Source: an uncultured Ignavibacteria bacterium
Lineage (GTDB): Bacteria > Zixibacteria > MSB-5A5 > RBG-16-43-9
Direction: 5' to 3'
Assembly: GCA_964511075.1 (NCBI GenBank)
Contig: CAZEDM010000004.1
Span: 194,442-258,441, forward strand
DNA length: 64,000 nt
The position numbers and the translations under genes are program-made. The notes under the pieces were generated by a model that saw nothing but the letters and a program-made list of their open reading frames with translations, was not told the DNA's origin and made no database searches. Positions 38,979 through 45,450 of the stretch are shown piece by piece. Position 1 is the first letter of the stretch; every line of letters begins with the position of its first letter.

Positions 38979-39030
38979 AAATTGCCCAAACAAATCAATC
39001 GTCGGGTGTCTTGCTCACCCAGAGCTATTT
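38979..39030 (+). repeat. Left copy of a ~50-bp direct repeat bracketing the vsr-dcm-GHKL-REC block
   Basis: AAATTGCCCAAACAAATCAATCGTCGGGTGTCTTGCTCACCCAGAGCTA. By hand alignment, about 39 of 49 positions are identical to 44226-44277. Confidence 0.6.
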
Positions 39031-39068
39031 CTCTGTCTCAAAACGATACTGCATCTAACATATTTTAT

Positions 39069-40349
39069 TTATCCCTTATCAATCGGCCAATAAACAGAAA
39101 CCACGCCTGGCCGATTAACATGTCTTGATATATATGACTGGATATCAACGAGTAATTCATGTCTGATTCTACCCAGAAGTTTTTTGCTGGATTTTTTTGT
39201 ATTAAGCGGTAAAGTTGTCAGACATCTGATATCAAAAACTAACCTGTATTTTTTATTTTTAATATTAACCAAAGGCGATATATAAAGATAGTCGGTCTTT
39301 CTCTTTATTTTTTTTGAATACTCTGAAGGCCACATAAGTCCTGGCATGAACCTGTAAACACGCATTTTTTTACAGGTGTAATCGCACACAGAAGAAACCT
39401 CTAGGAAAACATCTTCCACTGAATCAATCAAACCATCTTTGTCATGATATTGCCTTAAATCACCATCAAAAACGTCTTGTATCAAAGCAGGTTTTCTGTT
39501 ATTAATTCTCCCCTCATAAATATTCCCCGGTTTTATAGAATCATCATCTTCCACTTCAGCCATCAATAATCTTGAATTGATTTTTGAGACTATATCAGCA
39601 TCAGGTTTGCCTCTGATGCGGCTACTTTTGTTTTTTCCGGTATACTGAAAGTTTTTTATTGCACTTTCAAGATTGTCAATAAAAGCCATATTGAAAGTCA
39701 GAAGGGAATTTTTAGATATTTCGTTGATATTGCCTGGTTGAAGCCTTTCGCCGGCATAAGCCTTGGCAAGCTCGCGAGACACCATAAACATATTTTTGTT
39801 CCAATTCATATCTGAGGGATAAAATGATGAGAAATCATCCACTATTCCCCCTGCGGATTTATGAACAATGTTTTCCCATAAAACAAACAGATGGAATGCA
39901 CCAGCTTTGTCTAATTCATTCTTGAGACGGGATTCTATTCTGTTTAGATTGTAACCACCTCTTTTGTATTTGCATTCATTCTTACGAAGATCCAGTAAAA
40001 ACAATGGAGCATTTTTTGCTAGAGCATTTTTGATTCCTGCTTTTAGCTCTGTGTGTTTGGTCCATACAATCAAAATATATGGCCCGCTTACACCTGGACC
40101 AATTATACGATTAATAACTCCCACTGCTGTTGATACTTTGGTTTTATCGCTTTGGCCATCAGTGCCAAGTACTACATCCAAGAAAATAATACGCACTCCG
40201 GCGATAGGCTTTGTTGGTAATTCTTCTTGCTTGAGCCCCGTATAATAGAGTATCGGAATACCTTTTTTTGCCAAAACCTTCACCAATGGAAGTGCTTCAT
40301 CATCCTTATCATCAATTACTACTACTCTTCCACTTTCAGGTATATTCAT
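39069..40349 (-). CDS. Receiver (REC/CheY-like) domain protein with ~300-aa unknown C-terminal domain
   Basis: The N-terminal ~125 aa carry the receiver residue pattern: RVVVIDD (D13, D14), RIIFLD (D58), ILIVWT (T97), FLLDLRK (K123). The remainder has no motif I recognise. The start overlaps the upstream gene stop by 4 nt. Confidence 0.6.
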   Translation of the reverse strand: MNIPESGRVVVIDDKDDEALPLVKVLAKKGIPILYYTGLKQEELPTKPIAGVRIIFLDVVLGTDGQSDKTKVSTAVGVINRIIGPGVSGPYILIVWTKHTELKAGIKNALAKNAPLFLLDLRKNECKYKRGGYNLNRIESRLKNELDKAGAFHLFVLWENIVHKSAGGIVDDFSSFYPSDMNWNKNMFMVSRELAKAYAGERLQPGNINEISKNSLLTFNMAFIDNLESAIKNFQYTGKNKSSRIRGKPDADIVSKINSRLLMAEVEDDDSIKPGNIYEGRINNRKPALIQDVFDGDLRQYHDKDGLIDSVEDVFLEVSSVCDYTCKKMRVYRFMPGLMWPSEYSKKIKRKTDYLYISPLVNIKNKKYRLVFDIRCLTTLPLNTKKSSKKLLGRIRHELLVDIQSYISRHVNRPGVVSVYWPIDKG

Positions 40350-42451
40350 TTTGCCCTCTCTTTCCGAAATGCAAGAACGACGATTGCTCCGGACCTAAAT
40401 TCTTTAGGTACGGAAATTTCGCCTCTTTCAGGAAACATAATCTCTCCCCTATGTGCCTCCATCACGCTTTTTGCAATATGAAGTCCAAGCCCCATTCCAT
40501 CGGACTTGGCTGAAATAAAAGGTTTTGTAATTTCTTCCGTAGGCAGTGAGAAACCGGGGCCATTATCAGCTATTATGACAGACAAATAACCAGGAAGTTC
40601 ATCTGATAGGGAAATGAATATTTTCTTGTCCTTCATACCTCCATAATCAAGCCACCATATGGAATTATCAATAACATTTAGAATTGTTCCGATAACAAGA
40701 TTTCTTGCACATTTAAGTACAGGTTCACCCTTAAATCTGATATAATCCCTTATTATACTGATTTTGTGTGCGTTAAGTCTGAATTCAACATCAAAAATAG
40801 ATTGTTCAATAAGCTTTTTCATATCCTCTGATTTCCTGCCAGTGCTCCGGATAATAACACTATATCCTTCAACCAGTTGTGCAAGATGTTTAACTAAAGC
40901 AACAATCCTCGCTGATGGTTTTTCCTTCTCAATAACCTTGACAAGTTCCTCTATTATTTTTTCAGCTTCATGAATCACAACCCCAAGATTCAATCCTGCT
41001 CCAGCACTTTTCAAAAGCGTTTCATTGATAAACCTGTAATCATCTTCTATTCGCTTTAGATAAACAGAAATATCATCCTTTAATTTTATATCTTTGATTT
41101 TTGTCTCAACAAGATTTTTCAAATCAGCCAAATCAGAAATTACCGGCTCTGAGGCAGGCGTAGGCCCATAAAATGTCCTGATTTTATCCTTGTCTATTTC
41201 CCTGAATGTTTCTACCTTATCCAGAACATAAAGAATCGAGGCCTTGAAGACATTGAAAGCCTCATTATCAATGAACCCTTCCCTGTTAGTCTTCTCAATT
41301 AAATCCCTACTTTCCTTTCTCGAGAGATGAATAGCGCCTAGTATTATATTGTTGCTTATCCTTTTTGTAGGGACATTTACTCTCCGTAAGCCCAAATTAA
41401 GCCAGTCATTGCCCGGTTCACCGTAGTCATAAACCCTGATTCCATCTCTGTATATTCTTATTCCTCCGTTGATATCAAGATATTCCTTAAGCCCCTTTTT
41501 ATCTTGTACCCCCAAAGACAGTATCTTTGCATCTCTGTCAAAAATCAAAGCCTCAAATATAATCTTTCCTATCCGGGCTACAGACAGATCGATCGGCAAA
41601 TTATCCTTATCAACCATCTTTCTTATTTTTTTGATTTCAATGTCGTGTTCGGTAACCTGTCTGTGATGCAGCTTTCTCATAGTTGGCCAAGGCATGAACT
41701 TATATCTAAACTTTTCAATAAGATGTCCTTCAATTTCGCATTCAATCTTAAATAATGCATAATCCTTTATCTGCTGCCAAGACAATAATCCCTCAAGCCA
41801 TTCCTTCTTGTCTGTCTCAAAATTCACCCTGAAAGAATCTGGGGCATCAAAAGGAGAACAAAGAGAATTTATTGAACGATAGACTTCTCTTATCATGGCT
41901 TTATTCCACGTACCCTTCAATTTACTTATGATTATCTTAGTTCCACTTTTGTTGCCAGTAAAAACATCTGGAGTTCTCTCGGTTATCCTGACGGGAATTT
42001 CATCAAGATATTTTGACTCCTTGAAAATGTCCCAGTTAATTTTTATAACAATCTCTCTGCCGTGTTCTTTCCTAGTTATCATTTCAATTTCATTACCGAG
42101 TTTGTAAACGCTGAATCTTCCTATACCTTTTTCTCCTAAAGGAAGTCGCTTAAATTCTTTCCTCTTACTATCTCCCTCAAGAAGCTTCTCCTTGTAATCA
42201 CTTGCCGGTTCCATCCATACATTCTTTATTATCTCTAGATCCATACCCTTGCCATTATCTTCAACAGTAATAACACCTTTAACGCTATTATCAAGATTCT
42301 TCATTGATATATTGACATAGGCGGCATCAGCATCATAGGAATTCTTAACAAGCTCAAGCAAAGCTATACTCTCATTTTTTATCAGTTGATCACCAAGTTG
42401 TAATAGTAATCTTGCCCGAGGCTTAAAAATCACTTTATCCATGTCCGGCAT
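40346..42451 (-). CDS. Double GHKL ATPase: N-terminal MORC/MutL-like HATPase_c_3 plus C-terminal histidine-kinase-like DHp/CA core
   Basis: N-terminal Bergerat motifs ELVKNSYDA, DNGKGMD, GEKGIGRFS. C-terminal candidate H-box GVVIHEAEKII (H494), N-box ILNVIDNSIWW, G1 ADNGPGF, G2 DGMGLGLHIAKSVM. Confidence 0.7.
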   Translation of the reverse strand: MPDMDKVIFKPRARLLLQLGDQLIKNESIALLELVKNSYDADAAYVNISMKNLDNSVKGVITVEDNGKGMDLEIIKNVWMEPASDYKEKLLEGDSKRKEFKRLPLGEKGIGRFSVYKLGNEIEMITRKEHGREIVIKINWDIFKESKYLDEIPVRITERTPDVFTGNKSGTKIIISKLKGTWNKAMIREVYRSINSLCSPFDAPDSFRVNFETDKKEWLEGLLSWQQIKDYALFKIECEIEGHLIEKFRYKFMPWPTMRKLHHRQVTEHDIEIKKIRKMVDKDNLPIDLSVARIGKIIFEALIFDRDAKILSLGVQDKKGLKEYLDINGGIRIYRDGIRVYDYGEPGNDWLNLGLRRVNVPTKRISNNIILGAIHLSRKESRDLIEKTNREGFIDNEAFNVFKASILYVLDKVETFREIDKDKIRTFYGPTPASEPVISDLADLKNLVETKIKDIKLKDDISVYLKRIEDDYRFINETLLKSAGAGLNLGVVIHEAEKIIEELVKVIEKEKPSARIVALVKHLAQLVEGYSVIIRSTGRKSEDMKKLIEQSIFDVEFRLNAHKISIIRDYIRFKGEPVLKCARNLVIGTILNVIDNSIWWLDYGGMKDKKIFISLSDELPGYLSVIIADNGPGFSLPTEEITKPFISAKSDGMGLGLHIAKSVMEAHRGEIMFPERGEISVPKEFRSGAIVVLAFRKERAK

Positions 42452-43784
42452 TTTTTACCTCCCTGAATGTATCATAAACTGATTCCGCTATTTTCCTTGC
42501 AAGGAGTGGTGGCACTGCATTTCCTATCTGCCTGAAGATTTTGTTGTAAGGGCCCGCAAACCCTTCATGGTCAGGATACCAGTCAGGGAATGACTGGATT
42601 CTTGCAGCCTCCCTCACTGTGATTGTTCTTGCCTGACTACTGTCAGGATGAATGAACCTGTTGCCATCCTTCTGAAGATGTGCGAAAATAGTTGAACACG
42701 CCTTTCCCCAGCTCTGCTTCTTGTATTTGTCCTTGAAGCTGGACATATCATATTTTATCAACCTTCTGAGTCTTCTTATATTTTTGCTGTTGCTCTCAAA
42801 AATATCCTTTGCTCTCATCCCCTGCTTCATTCCCCTGAAAAGCAGAATATCATCCCTTTTCTGCCCTCTTGCAATATGATGAGTGAGAACAGTCTGGCCG
42901 TTCAGCTTAATAAAATCAAGAAAAGTCTTCCCTTTCTCCGTAAGAGAATTGTAGTGCGTGAGGAATAAATCATTATGATATGTAATTGAATCCTTGCCGG
43001 AAAATACCCTCTTGTTGTATCTTTCAATTTTCACTTTTTGATTATCTGTATTTATATCTGTAAACGTGATTTTTGCCTTCAGTTTGGGCAGGTCACCAAT
43101 CGCCTCGAATAGTGTAACATACTCTGAAGTATTGTGTGTTGGCAGTGGATACGGATTCTTTATTCCAAGGTTGTTCCCGATTAGAAACACTCTTTCTCTT
43201 GTCTGGGGAACACCATAATCAGCAGCATTAAGTATCATATAATCCGTTTTAATATCTTCATTTTCACTCTCAAAGGAATAACCAAGAGCTTTGAAGTAAG
43301 AAATGATTATATCAATGTACGTCCTGCCCTTGCTGTCCTTCTTGGAAAGTATCCCCTTGACATTTTCAAAAACAATAAATGAAGGTTTCAGCTCTTTAAC
43401 AAGAGAAATATACTCCTCATAGAGCCTGTCCATAATTCTATACTTACGGGGATTTCCTTTCTTTCCGTTTCCTGACCTCGGTCCTATCAGCGAGAAAGAC
43501 TGACAAGGCGGGCCACCGATTATAATATCCACCCCTTCCCTGCATCTTTTTACTATCTCATTGTGTATTTCCGGCTTGGTCAGATCAGCCTGAAGTACAA
43601 TTTCTTCATTCCCATATTCTTTTGAAAAATGTTTTCTAAGAGTCTGACAGGAATACCTTTCATTATCTACTGCAAGAACGACCTCAAATACCTTTCTGCT
43701 TCCGCCATCTCTAACAAGATCAAAGCCCAGTGAAAAACCACCAGCGCCTGCAAATAAATCCAGAACCTTTAGCTTATCTTTCAT
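42435..43784 (-). CDS. dcm: DNA (cytosine-5) methyltransferase
   Basis: Motif I LDLFAGAGGFSLGF, motif IV GGPPCQSFS, motif VI FENVKG, motif VIII QTRERVF, motif X GNAVPPLL. Confidence 0.92.
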   Translation of the reverse strand: MKDKLKVLDLFAGAGGFSLGFDLVRDGGSRKVFEVVLAVDNERYSCQTLRKHFSKEYGNEEIVLQADLTKPEIHNEIVKRCREGVDIIIGGPPCQSFSLIGPRSGNGKKGNPRKYRIMDRLYEEYISLVKELKPSFIVFENVKGILSKKDSKGRTYIDIIISYFKALGYSFESENEDIKTDYMILNAADYGVPQTRERVFLIGNNLGIKNPYPLPTHNTSEYVTLFEAIGDLPKLKAKITFTDINTDNQKVKIERYNKRVFSGKDSITYHNDLFLTHYNSLTEKGKTFLDFIKLNGQTVLTHHIARGQKRDDILLFRGMKQGMRAKDIFESNSKNIRRLRRLIKYDMSSFKDKYKKQSWGKACSTIFAHLQKDGNRFIHPDSSQARTITVREAARIQSFPDWYPDHEGFAGPYNKIFRQIGNAVPPLLARKIAESVYDTFREVKNAGHG

Positions 43785-44179
43785 ATCTTATCAATGATTT
43801 TCCGTTTGATTATTTTTTCATTTCTCATCTCATGCTCCCAGATTCTCAAAACTTTCCACCCTTTCTTCATGAGTTCCCTGTTTACAACTTTATCTCTTTT
43901 TACATTTGACTCTATCTTCTCTTTCCAGAATTTTATATTAGTTCTGGGTTTTATAAAACATCTGGGGCATTTATGCCAGAAACAACCATCAATGAATATC
44001 GCAATTTTCTTCCGGGGGAAAACTATATCAGGCTTTCCTGTGAGTTTATAATGAAGCCTGTATCCCTTCAGTTCGGAAGCAGATAACATTTTTCTCAGCC
44101 TGATTTCGGGCTGTGTGTTACTAGCCCTTATCATCGACATATTATAGCTGCGCTGTTTTTTTGTAAGAACATCGGTCAT
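43781..44179 (-). CDS. vsr: Very-short-patch repair endonuclease
   Basis: RSYNMSMIRASNTQPEIRLRKML...GKPDIVFPRKKIAIFIDGCFWHKCP. GGAGA RBS upstream. The stop overlaps the dcm start by 4 nt. Confidence 0.88.
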   Translation of the reverse strand: MTDVLTKKQRSYNMSMIRASNTQPEIRLRKMLSASELKGYRLHYKLTGKPDIVFPRKKIAIFIDGCFWHKCPRCFIKPRTNIKFWKEKIESNVKRDKVVNRELMKKGWKVLRIWEHEMRNEKIIKRKIIDKI

Positions 44180-44225: not shown

Positions 44226-44277
44226 AAATTGCCCGACAAACTCAATCGTCGGGTGGTTTGCGCAACCCGATCTACTC
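44226..44277 (+). repeat. Right copy of the direct repeat bracketing the defence block
   Basis: AAATTGCCCGACAAACTCAATCGTCGGGTGGTTTGCGCAACCCGATCTA. It contains a CCCGAC/GTCGGG hairpin and lies between the dnaJ stop and the vsr start. Confidence 0.6.
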
Positions 44278-44283
44278 CTATTT

Positions 44284-45450
44284 CTAAAACCCCAATGTAT
44301 TTTTTAACCTCTCAATAAAATCCTTATCCCCTTTTGGCGGCTTTATTCCGGACTTCTCCGAAAGCTCTTTTAATATTCTTTTTTCCTCAGAAGAAAGCGA
44401 AGTCGGTGTCCAGACCAGGACACGGACTATCTGGTCGCCTTTGCCATAAGAATGCAGATGGGGAATCCCTTTTCCTCTCAGCCTGAAAAGCCTGCCCGAC
44501 TGTGTGCCAGCCGGAATCTTTAATTTCACCCTGCCGTCCAGGGTTGGCACCTCTGCCTCGCTCCCTAATGCTGCCTGGGGAAAACCTATTGCCAGCTCGT
44601 AGAGCAGGTCGTCATCGTGTCTGGTAAAGTCCGGGTGCTCCTGCTCCTCGATGAAAACCAGCACGTCACCTGCAGGACCTCCCCTTTTGCCGTAATTCCC
44701 TGCACCCCGCACAGGAATATAGTTCCCGGTACTTACCCCCGGAGGCACTTTTACCGTAATGGTGCTTTCCCCTCTTGCCCTGCCGTCACCGCCGCAGGCT
44801 GAACAGGCTTTCTCGATCACCTCGCCTGAGCCGCCGCAGAGATTGCAGGTGGTAATTATAATAGACTGTCCCAAAAAAGAACGCGATACTTTTCTTGCCT
44901 CTCCTGTGCCGTGACAGGTAGGGCAGGTTCTTTTGGAAGTCCCTTTTTCTGCTCCGCTTCCCTCGCAGTCCGAACACCTGACCAGCCTCTTGAGCTTGAT
45001 CGTCTTCTCGACGCCCGTGGCAATCTCTTCCAGGGTCAGTTTAAGCTTGATCTGCAGATCCTCGCCCTTAACGGGTCCGCGCCTGGACCTGGAGGTTCTT
45101 CTTCCCCCGAAGATGTCTAAATCCTCGAACCCGAATGCCCCGAAATCCCGCATGAAAGTTCTCAGGGCATCCCCGATATCGAAACTCCCGAAATCAAAAC
45201 CCTCAAAGCCTGTTCCGGCTCCCACACCAACCCCTACATGCCCGAACTGGTCGTACCTTTTTCTTTTAGCCGGGTCTTTCAATACTTCATACGCCTCGGT
45301 TGCCTCCTTGAACTTCTCCTCAGCCTCCTTGTTCCCCGGGTTCCTGTCCGGATGGTATTGCAGAGCTAACTTCCGGTAAGCCTTTTTTACGTCCTCTTCG
45401 CTGGCACCTCTTTCCAGTCCCAGGACCTCGTAATAATCTCTTTTAGCCAT
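44284..45450 (-). CDS. dnaJ: Chaperone DnaJ
   Basis: J-domain [33 protein letters not shown], a G/F region, and four CxxCxGxG zinc-finger repeats. Confidence 0.93.

Follow-up and report, generated by a model that had tools for sequence, protein, structure and literature searches.

The 64,000-nucleotide stretch of DNA analyzed here (the window) comes from contig CAZEDM010000004.1 of an uncultured Ignavibacteria bacterium. At 39069..40349 on its minus strand lies a gene for a protein of 426 amino acids (aa) that resembles a response regulator (RR). The gene follows that of a histidine kinase (HK) in an island of four genes, vsr-dcm-HK-RR, and its product was found to combine a receiver-like domain carrying a conserved phospho-acceptor set with a C-terminal region whose predicted fold resembles that of the MazF/PemK toxins. 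The island comprises the following features.

39069..40349, minus strand: RR-like gene, 426 aa; receiver, helical bundle, and MazF/PemK-like barrel (open reading frame [ORF], family, and AlphaFold2 [AF2] model)
40346..42451, minus strand: soluble HK, 701 aa, with an extra N-terminal MORC/MutL-type GHKL ATPase (Pfam, NCBIfam, and motifs)
42435..43784, minus strand: C5 cytosine DNA methyltransferase of the Dcm type, 449 aa (PF00145, E = 1.4e-59; TIGR00675, E = 1.7e-53)
43781..44179, minus strand: Vsr very-short-patch (VSP) repair endonuclease, 132 aa (PF03852, E = 1.2e-23; TIGR00632, E = 1.3e-40)
38979..39042: left copy of a 64-nt direct repeat bounding the island (repeat search)
44226..44289: right copy of the 64-nt direct repeat, overlapping the dnaJ stop codon and 3' flank (repeat search)

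Neighboring genes overlap by 4 nt (vsr/dcm), 17 nt (dcm/HK), and 4 nt (HK/RR), with the ATG of RR overlapping the stop codon of the upstream HK gene as ATGA. The 64-nt direct repeats are 77% identical, have a spacing of 5247, and bracket vsr-dcm-HK-RR exactly; their 14-nt core occurs at these two sites only in the window, with 0 expected. The GC content of the island is 37.9%, against 46.5% in the flanks. The four genes look like a 5.2-kb insertion downstream of dnaJ. The core shared by the two copies also holds a short inverted repeat (CCCGAC...GTCGGG), possibly the terminator of dnaJ. In the island, scans for promoters and terminators performed no better than scans of shuffled sequence.

The ORF at 39069..40349 is a genuine gene, and because homologues open with the same N-terminal sequence, MNxPxxGRVVVIDD, its start codon is assigned correctly. 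The family comprised 69 close clusters and 2,072 clusters at 50% identity, and almost all of the best 150 representatives of the 2,072 aligned over their full length. Conservation was counted in a family alignment of 235 sequences, 22 to 74% identical to the window protein. The AF2 model of full-length RR had a predicted local distance difference test (pLDDT) score of 88.5 and a predicted TM-score (pTM) of 0.79. Scans with Pfam, NCBIfam, PADLOC, and PHROGs gave no useful match to the window RR. A search of PDB sequences returned only noise with the single sequence and no match at E <= 10 with a 45-sequence profile, and a search of phage genomes with RR returned no match. Since current Pfam, PADLOC, and NCBIfam models miss RR entirely, islands of this type go unannotated in genome surveys.

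The receiver and its key residues, the latter checked by translation, were located as follows.

39960..40349, minus strand: receiver (REC-like) domain, residues 1-130 (Foldseek PDB matches and residue conservation)
40308-40313, minus strand: D13/D14
40176-40178, minus strand: D58
40059-40061, minus strand: T97
39981-39983, minus strand: K123

An earlier note on this DNA, made without database searches, had proposed a receiver with the full phospho-acceptor set D13, D14, D58, T97, and K123. The proposal was borne out by translation, by conservation, and by the AF2 model and Foldseek. D58 was present in 233/233 non-gap rows of the alignment, K123 in 230/235 sequences, D13 in 226/235, and D14 in 221/235; position 97 was T or S in 222/235, and the preceding W96 was found in 235/235. 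As judged from the aligned sequences, this conservation is far above chance. The modeled receiver strands span residues 9-12, 34-36, 54-57, 92-97, and 117-122 and place the conserved residues at the C-terminal ends of beta1, beta3, beta4, and beta5. When the full-length model was searched against the PDB with Foldseek, almost all of the top 50 matches were response-regulator receivers (FixJ, StyR, Spo0F, RR468, and CheY). The domain is atypical in that helix alpha2 is reduced in the model to a loop with an invariant Pro45, and PF00072 gave weak matches in 6 of 45 relatives (best E = 0.0058). By conservation and predicted fold, though not by sequence models, the N terminus of RR is assigned as a receiver-like fold in which the phospho-acceptor pocket is conserved.

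The same note had called the adjacent protein kinase-like. It proved to be a real histidine kinase, with the following parts.

41939-42367, minus strand: GHKL domain
40970-40972, minus strand: H494
40424-40684, minus strand: catalytic ATP-binding (CA) domain

Pfam assigned its N terminus to HATPase_c_3 (PF13589, E = 1.5e-19) and its C terminus to HATPase_c (PF02518, E = 1.8e-17). The N-terminal ~180 residues also matched the BbrUII/HgiDII family NF050001 (E = 6.6e-24), a partial match covering the first 183 of 659 positions, as well as the type II restriction endonuclease (REase) models of PADLOC. Across 52 homologues the kinase motifs were invariant or nearly so. They included the H-box AGL[SN]L[SG][IV]V[IV]-H494-E495-x-E-K, with H494-E495 invariant, the N-box (N592/D595/N596), the G1 box (D629-N-G-x-G), the G2 box (G652-x-G-x-G-L), and the Bergerat motifs of the N-terminal ATPase (E33, N37, and D65-x-G-x-G). 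The middle region was likewise conserved, including an EKTNREGF motif. Because the H-box, N, G1, and G2 boxes and the Bergerat motifs are all conserved, the protein is identified, on its sequence, as a soluble HK in which the place of the sensor is taken by a MORC/MutL-type ATPase. More than 5,000 relatives were found at E <= 1e-10, Methanosarcina mazei included.

These kinase data also bear on a reading in which the N-terminal domain of RR is receiver-shaped but unphosphorylated, with HK and RR acting as a stable complex. The failure of PF00072 and PF19192 to match, the degenerate helix alpha2, and an HK H-box lacking the T/N at H+4 that is used for phosphatase activity would all fit such a pseudo-receiver. 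However, conservation of the five phospho-chemistry residues is 94 to 100% across the 235 sequences, and the kinase shows no variation in its His and ATP-binding boxes. Conservation of this kind is hard to explain without phosphotransfer, which makes the pseudo-receiver reading highly improbable.

The remainder of RR was divided into two parts.

39564..39947, minus strand: helical region, residues 135-262, a four-helix bundle and one further helix (AF2 secondary structure and conservation)
39090..39548, minus strand: C-terminal beta-barrel and terminal helix, residues 268-420, with a MazF/PemK/CcdB-like fold (Foldseek on the model of residues 130-426, and conservation)

Conserved positions in the bundle were W158-E159-N160, W183, D225, E228, and N258. 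The barrel (about 268-420) was modeled as seven strands followed by a long helix and contained a larger conserved set: P274-G-N-x-Y278, E317-x-[ST]-P-x-C322-D323, K328, R333, G337, D402, H410, and R413-P-G415. The dyad C322-D323 (39381-39386) was found in 233/233 non-gap rows. Around this dyad, which it retains, the window RR departs from the consensus (39381-39392, residues 319-326), with S320 where 224/235 sequences have Pro and C326 where 211/235 have Gln.

Residues 130-426 were remodeled alone (pLDDT 87.9) and searched with Foldseek against two structure libraries, the PDB and the viral library BFVD. In the PDB, the top 33 matches were all MazF/PemK toxins, with probabilities of 0.77 to 1.0 and target-normalized TM-scores of 0.48 to 0.64; they included E. 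coli MazF, M. tuberculosis MazF-mt1 and MazF-mt3, S. aureus MazF, and B. anthracis MoxT. Below these came low-probability antibody chains, with four more MazF chains among them. PemK/MazF proteins also headed the BFVD matches, where 6 of the 10 best were PemK/MazF proteins or an endoribonuclease, and E. coli MazF had already ranked 16th in the PDB search with full-length RR. The order of strands and helix appears to fit the MazF topology, plus a variable insertion of ~30 residues between the first two strands. The earlier note had described residues 130-426 as lacking a recognizable motif and as being of unknown fold. The first half of that description holds at the sequence level, where Pfam, NCBIfam, PADLOC, PHROGs, and PDB sequences were all empty, but the second does not, since a bundle and a MazF/PemK-like barrel emerged. 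The Foldseek search that it had proposed for this region placed MazF/PemK toxins on top, a resemblance at the level of fold only.

Like MazF, PemK, Kid, and CcdB, RR is predicted to have a small barrel ending in a C-terminal helix. Unlike the MazF/PemK toxins, it shows no sequence or profile similarity to them and has other invariant residues, and its barrel is fused to a receiver and a bundle instead of being paired with a MazE/PemI antitoxin gene. On the model, the C terminus of RR is best described as MazF/PemK-like in fold with a conserved polar center of its own, and it was not filed as a MazF family member. Neither a DNase family (PD-(D/E)xK, HNH, GIY-YIG, or other) nor a helix-turn-helix (HTH) or other DNA-binding output was found in RR by sequence models or fold search. 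Two outcomes had been named beforehand as telling against an effector, namely an N terminus with a non-receiver flavodoxin fold and a C terminus with a DNA-binding output domain; the analysis found neither.

Three other assignments of the C-terminal residues were tried and rejected. A PD-(D/E)xK reading of E317...D323...K328 was dropped because it had no fold support. A Cys-His-Asp protease (C322/H410/D402) was dropped because H410 lies in the terminal helix and the fold search gave no papain-like or caspase-like support. The likeness of W-E-N and P-x-C-D to motifs VI and IV of C5 methyltransferases was taken as coincidence, the fold being non-Rossmann.

Synteny was counted in 58 related loci from one-per-species genomes. 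RR was present in 58, HK in 55, Dcm in 46, Vsr in 25, an HNH_2 gene in 11, and an HhH-GPD gene in 10. The loci came from Cloacimonadota, Spirochaetota, WOR-3, Bacteroidota, Planctomycetota, Acidobacteriota, Verrucomicrobiota, Patescibacteria, Paenibacillus, Streptococcus suis, and a Thermoplasmata archaeon. In other genomes the Dcm-HK and HK-RR gaps were mostly -4 to +5 nt, and HK and RR identities correlated with a Spearman rho of 0.82. The HK and RR genes are translationally coupled, co-inherited, and syntenic across phyla.

The accessory genes occupied preferred positions. An HNH_2 (PF13391) gene directly followed RR in eight loci (L010, L022, L024, L028-L030, L039, and L045) and lay elsewhere or in another orientation in L023, L036, and L052, while the window has none; where it follows RR, it may supply the module with an additional or alternative nuclease arm. 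An HhH-GPD glycosylase (endonuclease III/MutY-like) directly followed RR in L001-L007, L009, L010, and L041 (for example, L001:9109-9738). This enzyme probably provides an alternative repair of T:G mismatches from 5-methylcytosine deamination, replacing Vsr. The closest RR and HK relatives of the window (L001-L010) have the HhH-GPD glycosylase and a Dcm of another lineage; for the window Vsr and Dcm, the closest counterparts are in L014 and L008. The kinase/effector half and the methylase/repair half therefore recombine.

This company raises the question of whether HK and RR are repair accessories, the MutL-like GHKL protein and its partner aiding VSP repair of the T:G mismatches that arise by 5-methylcytosine deamination. 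E. coli MutL has been reported to stimulate Vsr. The MORC/MutL-type GHKL domain of HK and the linkage to Vsr (25 loci) or to an HhH-GPD mismatch-type glycosylase (10 loci) would suit such a role, and the analogy has been discussed (PMC2292703). However, more than one third of the loci have neither Vsr nor a glycosylase within reach, and known VSP repair involves no kinase catalytic domain, receiver, or toxin-like barrel. A repair function is accordingly rated as most unlikely.

Most loci, the window included, contain no recognized nuclease besides Vsr, and HK-RR is therefore the only candidate restriction or toxic arm in them. One way to account for this is a classical restriction complex, in which HK and RR would together form an ATP-dependent restriction enzyme, the RR C terminus would be a novel DNase cutting DNA without the Dcm mark, phosphorylation would merely tune the activity, and the MazF-like fold would be convergent. 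Dcm lies directly upstream in most loci (46/58 carry Dcm), most of them without another nuclease. The GHKL N terminus of HK matches the BbrUII/HgiDII restriction-enzyme family, and the invariant E317, D323, K328, R333, D402, H410, and R413 could bind metal. The RR effector also co-varies with Dcm beyond HK: RR divergence, especially that of the bundle and barrel, tracked Dcm divergence when HK was controlled for (partial rho 0.48, permutation p = 0.001), compared with a partial rho of 0.01 for HK against Dcm when RR was controlled for. This is a weak hint that would fit target specificity residing in RR. Set against these points, RR matched no PD-(D/E)xK, HNH, GIY-YIG, or other DNase family by sequence or fold; its sole consistent fold match was to RNA-cleaving or gyrase-poisoning toxins; and the separate HNH_2 gene in 11 loci would be redundant if RR were a DNase. 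Such a complex is therefore regarded as a rather unlikely explanation, if one to be taken seriously.

Related pairs also occur on mobile elements and in archaea. Conjugative plasmids of Rhizobium, Agrobacterium, and Burkholderia carry related HK-RR pairs; the Rhizobium and Burkholderia plasmid HKs are 35 to 36% identical over 98 to 99% of their length, and the neighbor of HK on the Burkholderia glumae plasmid matched the RR family profile with an hhalign probability of 99.3% (E = 3.5e-20). On Rhizobium gallicum plasmid pRgalIE4872a (L061, 4518-11841), HK-RR lies upstream of a complete dcm-vsr-EcoRII-type restriction system and an HNH gene, and the module can coexist with a conventional restriction enzyme sharing its methylase. 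The chromosome of the cultured archaeon Methanosarcina mazei carries an intact HK-RR (L059, 6001-9353; HK 59% identical, RR hhalign E = 1e-94), with no DNA_methylase Pfam match among the called genes within 6 kb; its methylase could be encoded elsewhere in the genome.

In a further four loci (L043, Thermoplasmata; L055, Planctomycetota; L040; and L063, a Klebsiella plasmid), HK and/or RR were split or truncated next to an intact methylase ORF. This is the pattern of decay to be expected if a toxic arm is lost and leaves an orphan methylase, although frameshift errors are possible if some of the assemblies are long-read. No E. coli member was recovered by blastn with the Klebsiella locus as query.

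The outline of the module has been known since 2021, when two-component-like pairs of Response_reg_2 (PF19192) with HEF_HK (PF19191) proteins linked to restriction-modification (R-M) systems were described in silico (Bellieny-Rabelo et al. 2021, PMC8011034). That study reported 91.6% linkage and enrichment of R-M neighbors, stated that the RR has no other known domain, and only speculated on function; the PF19191 H-box was reported to lack the T/N at H+4 (PMC8011034). The window pair has the same makeup: an RR with a receiver-type DD/D/T/K set and an otherwise unannotated sequence, and an adjacent soluble kinase with HATPase_c_3, an H-E H-box, and HATPase_c, again without T/N at H+4. The setting also agrees, with Dcm upstream, Vsr or HNH_2 nearby, and a broad, patchy distribution. 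The published pairs have the RR within three genes of such a GHKL protein, and in the window the two genes are adjacent; a C5 methylase with Vsr or HNH_2 nearby is likewise present.

PF19192 and PF19191, in library models not checked on a confirmed PF19192 member, matched neither the window proteins nor 45 relatives at E <= 10, divergent genome members, remote representatives, proteobacterial plasmid pairs, or the isolated kinase dimerization/His-phosphotransfer (DHp) and REC regions. None of the precomputed annotations of database relatives, those of Rhizobium RR relatives included, carries either family. The window module thus belongs with Response_reg_2/HEF_HK by architecture and context, not by hidden Markov model. 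Rhizobium and Agrobacterium, whose plasmids carry related pairs, are among the taxa named in PMC8011034, and the plasmid pairs may correspond to its OG_4/OG_5. The RR C-terminal region was left unanalyzed in PMC8011034, and its bundle and MazF-like barrel are described here. New in the present analysis are this fold-level description of the effector and of its invariant Cys-Asp dyad, the family's size and breadth, the recombination with Dcm/Vsr or Dcm/glycosylase units, and the island boundaries.

The speculation in PMC8011034 was that of a nontoxic signaling pair, in which HK-RR would sense a nucleotide or DNA state and modulate neighboring R-M or repair genes through protein-protein contacts. 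Some loci do adjoin complete R-M systems, and the kinase and the RR are in every case distinct proteins. However, the RR has no HTH or other DNA-binding output, and its effector region has enzyme-like invariant residues. The module also accompanies many unrelated Dcm lineages, with Vsr or HhH-GPD, which fits a self-contained unit better than a regulator with one partner. Signaling of this kind therefore appears improbable.

Other known systems share parts of the arrangement. In Detocs (DtcA/DtcB/DtcC; Rousset et al., bioRxiv 10.1101/2023.01.24.525353), a kinase-to-receiver relay gates a toxic effector in phage defense. The system consists of a TPR-sensor kinase, a stand-alone receiver, and a receiver fused to a PNP or alternative effector (bioRxiv 10.1101/2023.01.24.525353). 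The RR resembles the toxic Detocs effector in joining a receiver to a non-DNA-binding effector instead of an HTH. A further shared feature is the stand-alone operon in defense contexts. Unlike Detocs, the window has no stand-alone buffer receiver (DtcB), TPR, or PNP domain, its sensor is a GHKL ATPase, its effector is not a PNP ATP nucleosidase, and the module is tightly linked to a C5 methylase. PADLOC, whose library may or may not include Detocs models, gave no Detocs match in the window.

The N-terminal MORC/MutL-type GHKL ATPase beside cytosine methylases, Vsr, and HNH nucleases is also found in paraMORC, BbrUII/HgiDII, and GHKL-Shedu VcSduA systems (PMC2292703, PMC12137116), and GHKL proteins of this type were earlier classified as paraMORCs belonging to R-M systems (Iyer et al. 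2008, PMC2292703). The ATPase in such restriction systems is thought to control a nuclease (PMC2292703, PMC12137116). In the window, by contrast, one protein joins the GHKL domain to a full histidine-kinase core, and the candidate effector is encoded apart from it, fused to a receiver. Compared with type II R-M, the window has the methyltransferase but no recognized endonuclease fold, and only the GHKL N terminus of HK resembles BbrUII/HgiDII and the PADLOC REase_II models.

Taken together, these data lead us to favor, with modest confidence, a reading in which vsr-dcm-HK-RR is a four-gene conflict module, horizontally mobile and linked to methylation, with RR as its effector arm, and in which RR would serve as the phosphorylation-gated toxic or restriction arm of a methylation-guarded defense. 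The residues of the His-to-Asp relay chemistry are conserved on both HK and RR, and the RR C terminus is the only unexplained enzyme-like domain of the module, with a predicted fold that is toxin-like. Since Dcm is tightly coupled and most loci have no recognized nuclease besides Vsr, something in HK-RR is expected to be dangerous to unmethylated DNA or to cells losing methylation. Detocs offers a precedent for a toxic effector gated by a kinase in defense, and the co-variation of RR with Dcm beyond HK is a weak hint in favor of this reading as well. Toxicity, defense, and phosphotransfer are what we infer for the pair. The earlier note had proposed a candidate novel abortive-infection or restriction effector under control of the adjacent kinase. 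The coupling and co-inheritance of HK and RR (55/58 loci) and the toxin-like barrel agree with that proposal; its novelty does not stand, the gene pair beside Dcm and Vsr having been described computationally in 2021 (PMC8011034).

In the mechanism envisaged, the GHKL clamp of HK would monitor DNA and sense the absence of the cognate Dcm mark, whether through methylation loss or on invading DNA. HK would then autophosphorylate on H494 and pass the phosphoryl group to D58 of the receiver, and phosphorylation of D58 would lift an intramolecular restraint imposed on the barrel by the receiver and the helical bundle. The freed barrel would attack nucleic acid, with RNA favored by the fold and DNA cleavage also possible; because the fold favors RNA, the outcome would be growth arrest or abortive infection. 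On self DNA, Dcm methylation would hold the module silent. Vsr would repair the T:G mismatches produced by 5-methylcytosine deamination, as the HhH-GPD glycosylase would in sister loci.

Several observations weigh against the reading of RR as a phosphorylation-gated effector. PF00072 did not match the window RR even at E <= 10. The Foldseek E-values of the barrel against MazF were weak, 3e-3 to 0.3, and the Pfam PemK model matched neither the window RR nor 45 relatives. When the RR profile was aligned by hhalign with a four-sequence MazF/Kid alignment, in which E. coli MazF was the one sequence of the four confirmed against the PDB, the probability was 0.1%; only a fold resemblance is therefore claimed for the barrel. 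The catalytic pair of MazF is Arg/Thr, and the invariant C322-D323, R413, and G415 of RR have no evident counterpart in it, nor could the pair be mapped onto RR. Small barrels such as this one may converge on the MazF fold. The island between the repeats consists of the four overlapping genes only, with no antitoxin-like small gene. Among the related loci, L019, L020, L033, L048, L051, and L053 have no adjacent Dcm, and the complete EcoRII-type R-M system beside HK-RR on the Rhizobium plasmid implies that HK-RR is not always the sole restriction function. The partial correlation of RR with Dcm may be a rate artifact arising from faster evolution of RR and Dcm. Literature searches found no experimental study of the HK-RR module.

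A more specific form of the favored reading is conceivable but doubtful. The module would be a methylation-guarded two-component immune switch in which a MORC-like kinase reads 5-methylcytosine and His-to-Asp transfer frees a MazF-like toxin with a new catalytic center, a Cys-Asp dyad with Arg/His. Such a switch, widespread in bacteria and present in archaea too, would provide abortive infection or addiction, with self-marking in the style of R-M and no DNA-cutting enzyme. The module itself is common, compact, and mobile, ranging from Bacteroidota and Bacillota to Patescibacteria, Methanosarcina, and Thermoplasmata. Should the proposed relay be real, defensive two-component systems would include a second type besides Detocs, one in which epigenetic self-marking is linked to a phosphorylation-gated toxin, and bacterial MORC-like ATPases would gain a concrete role.

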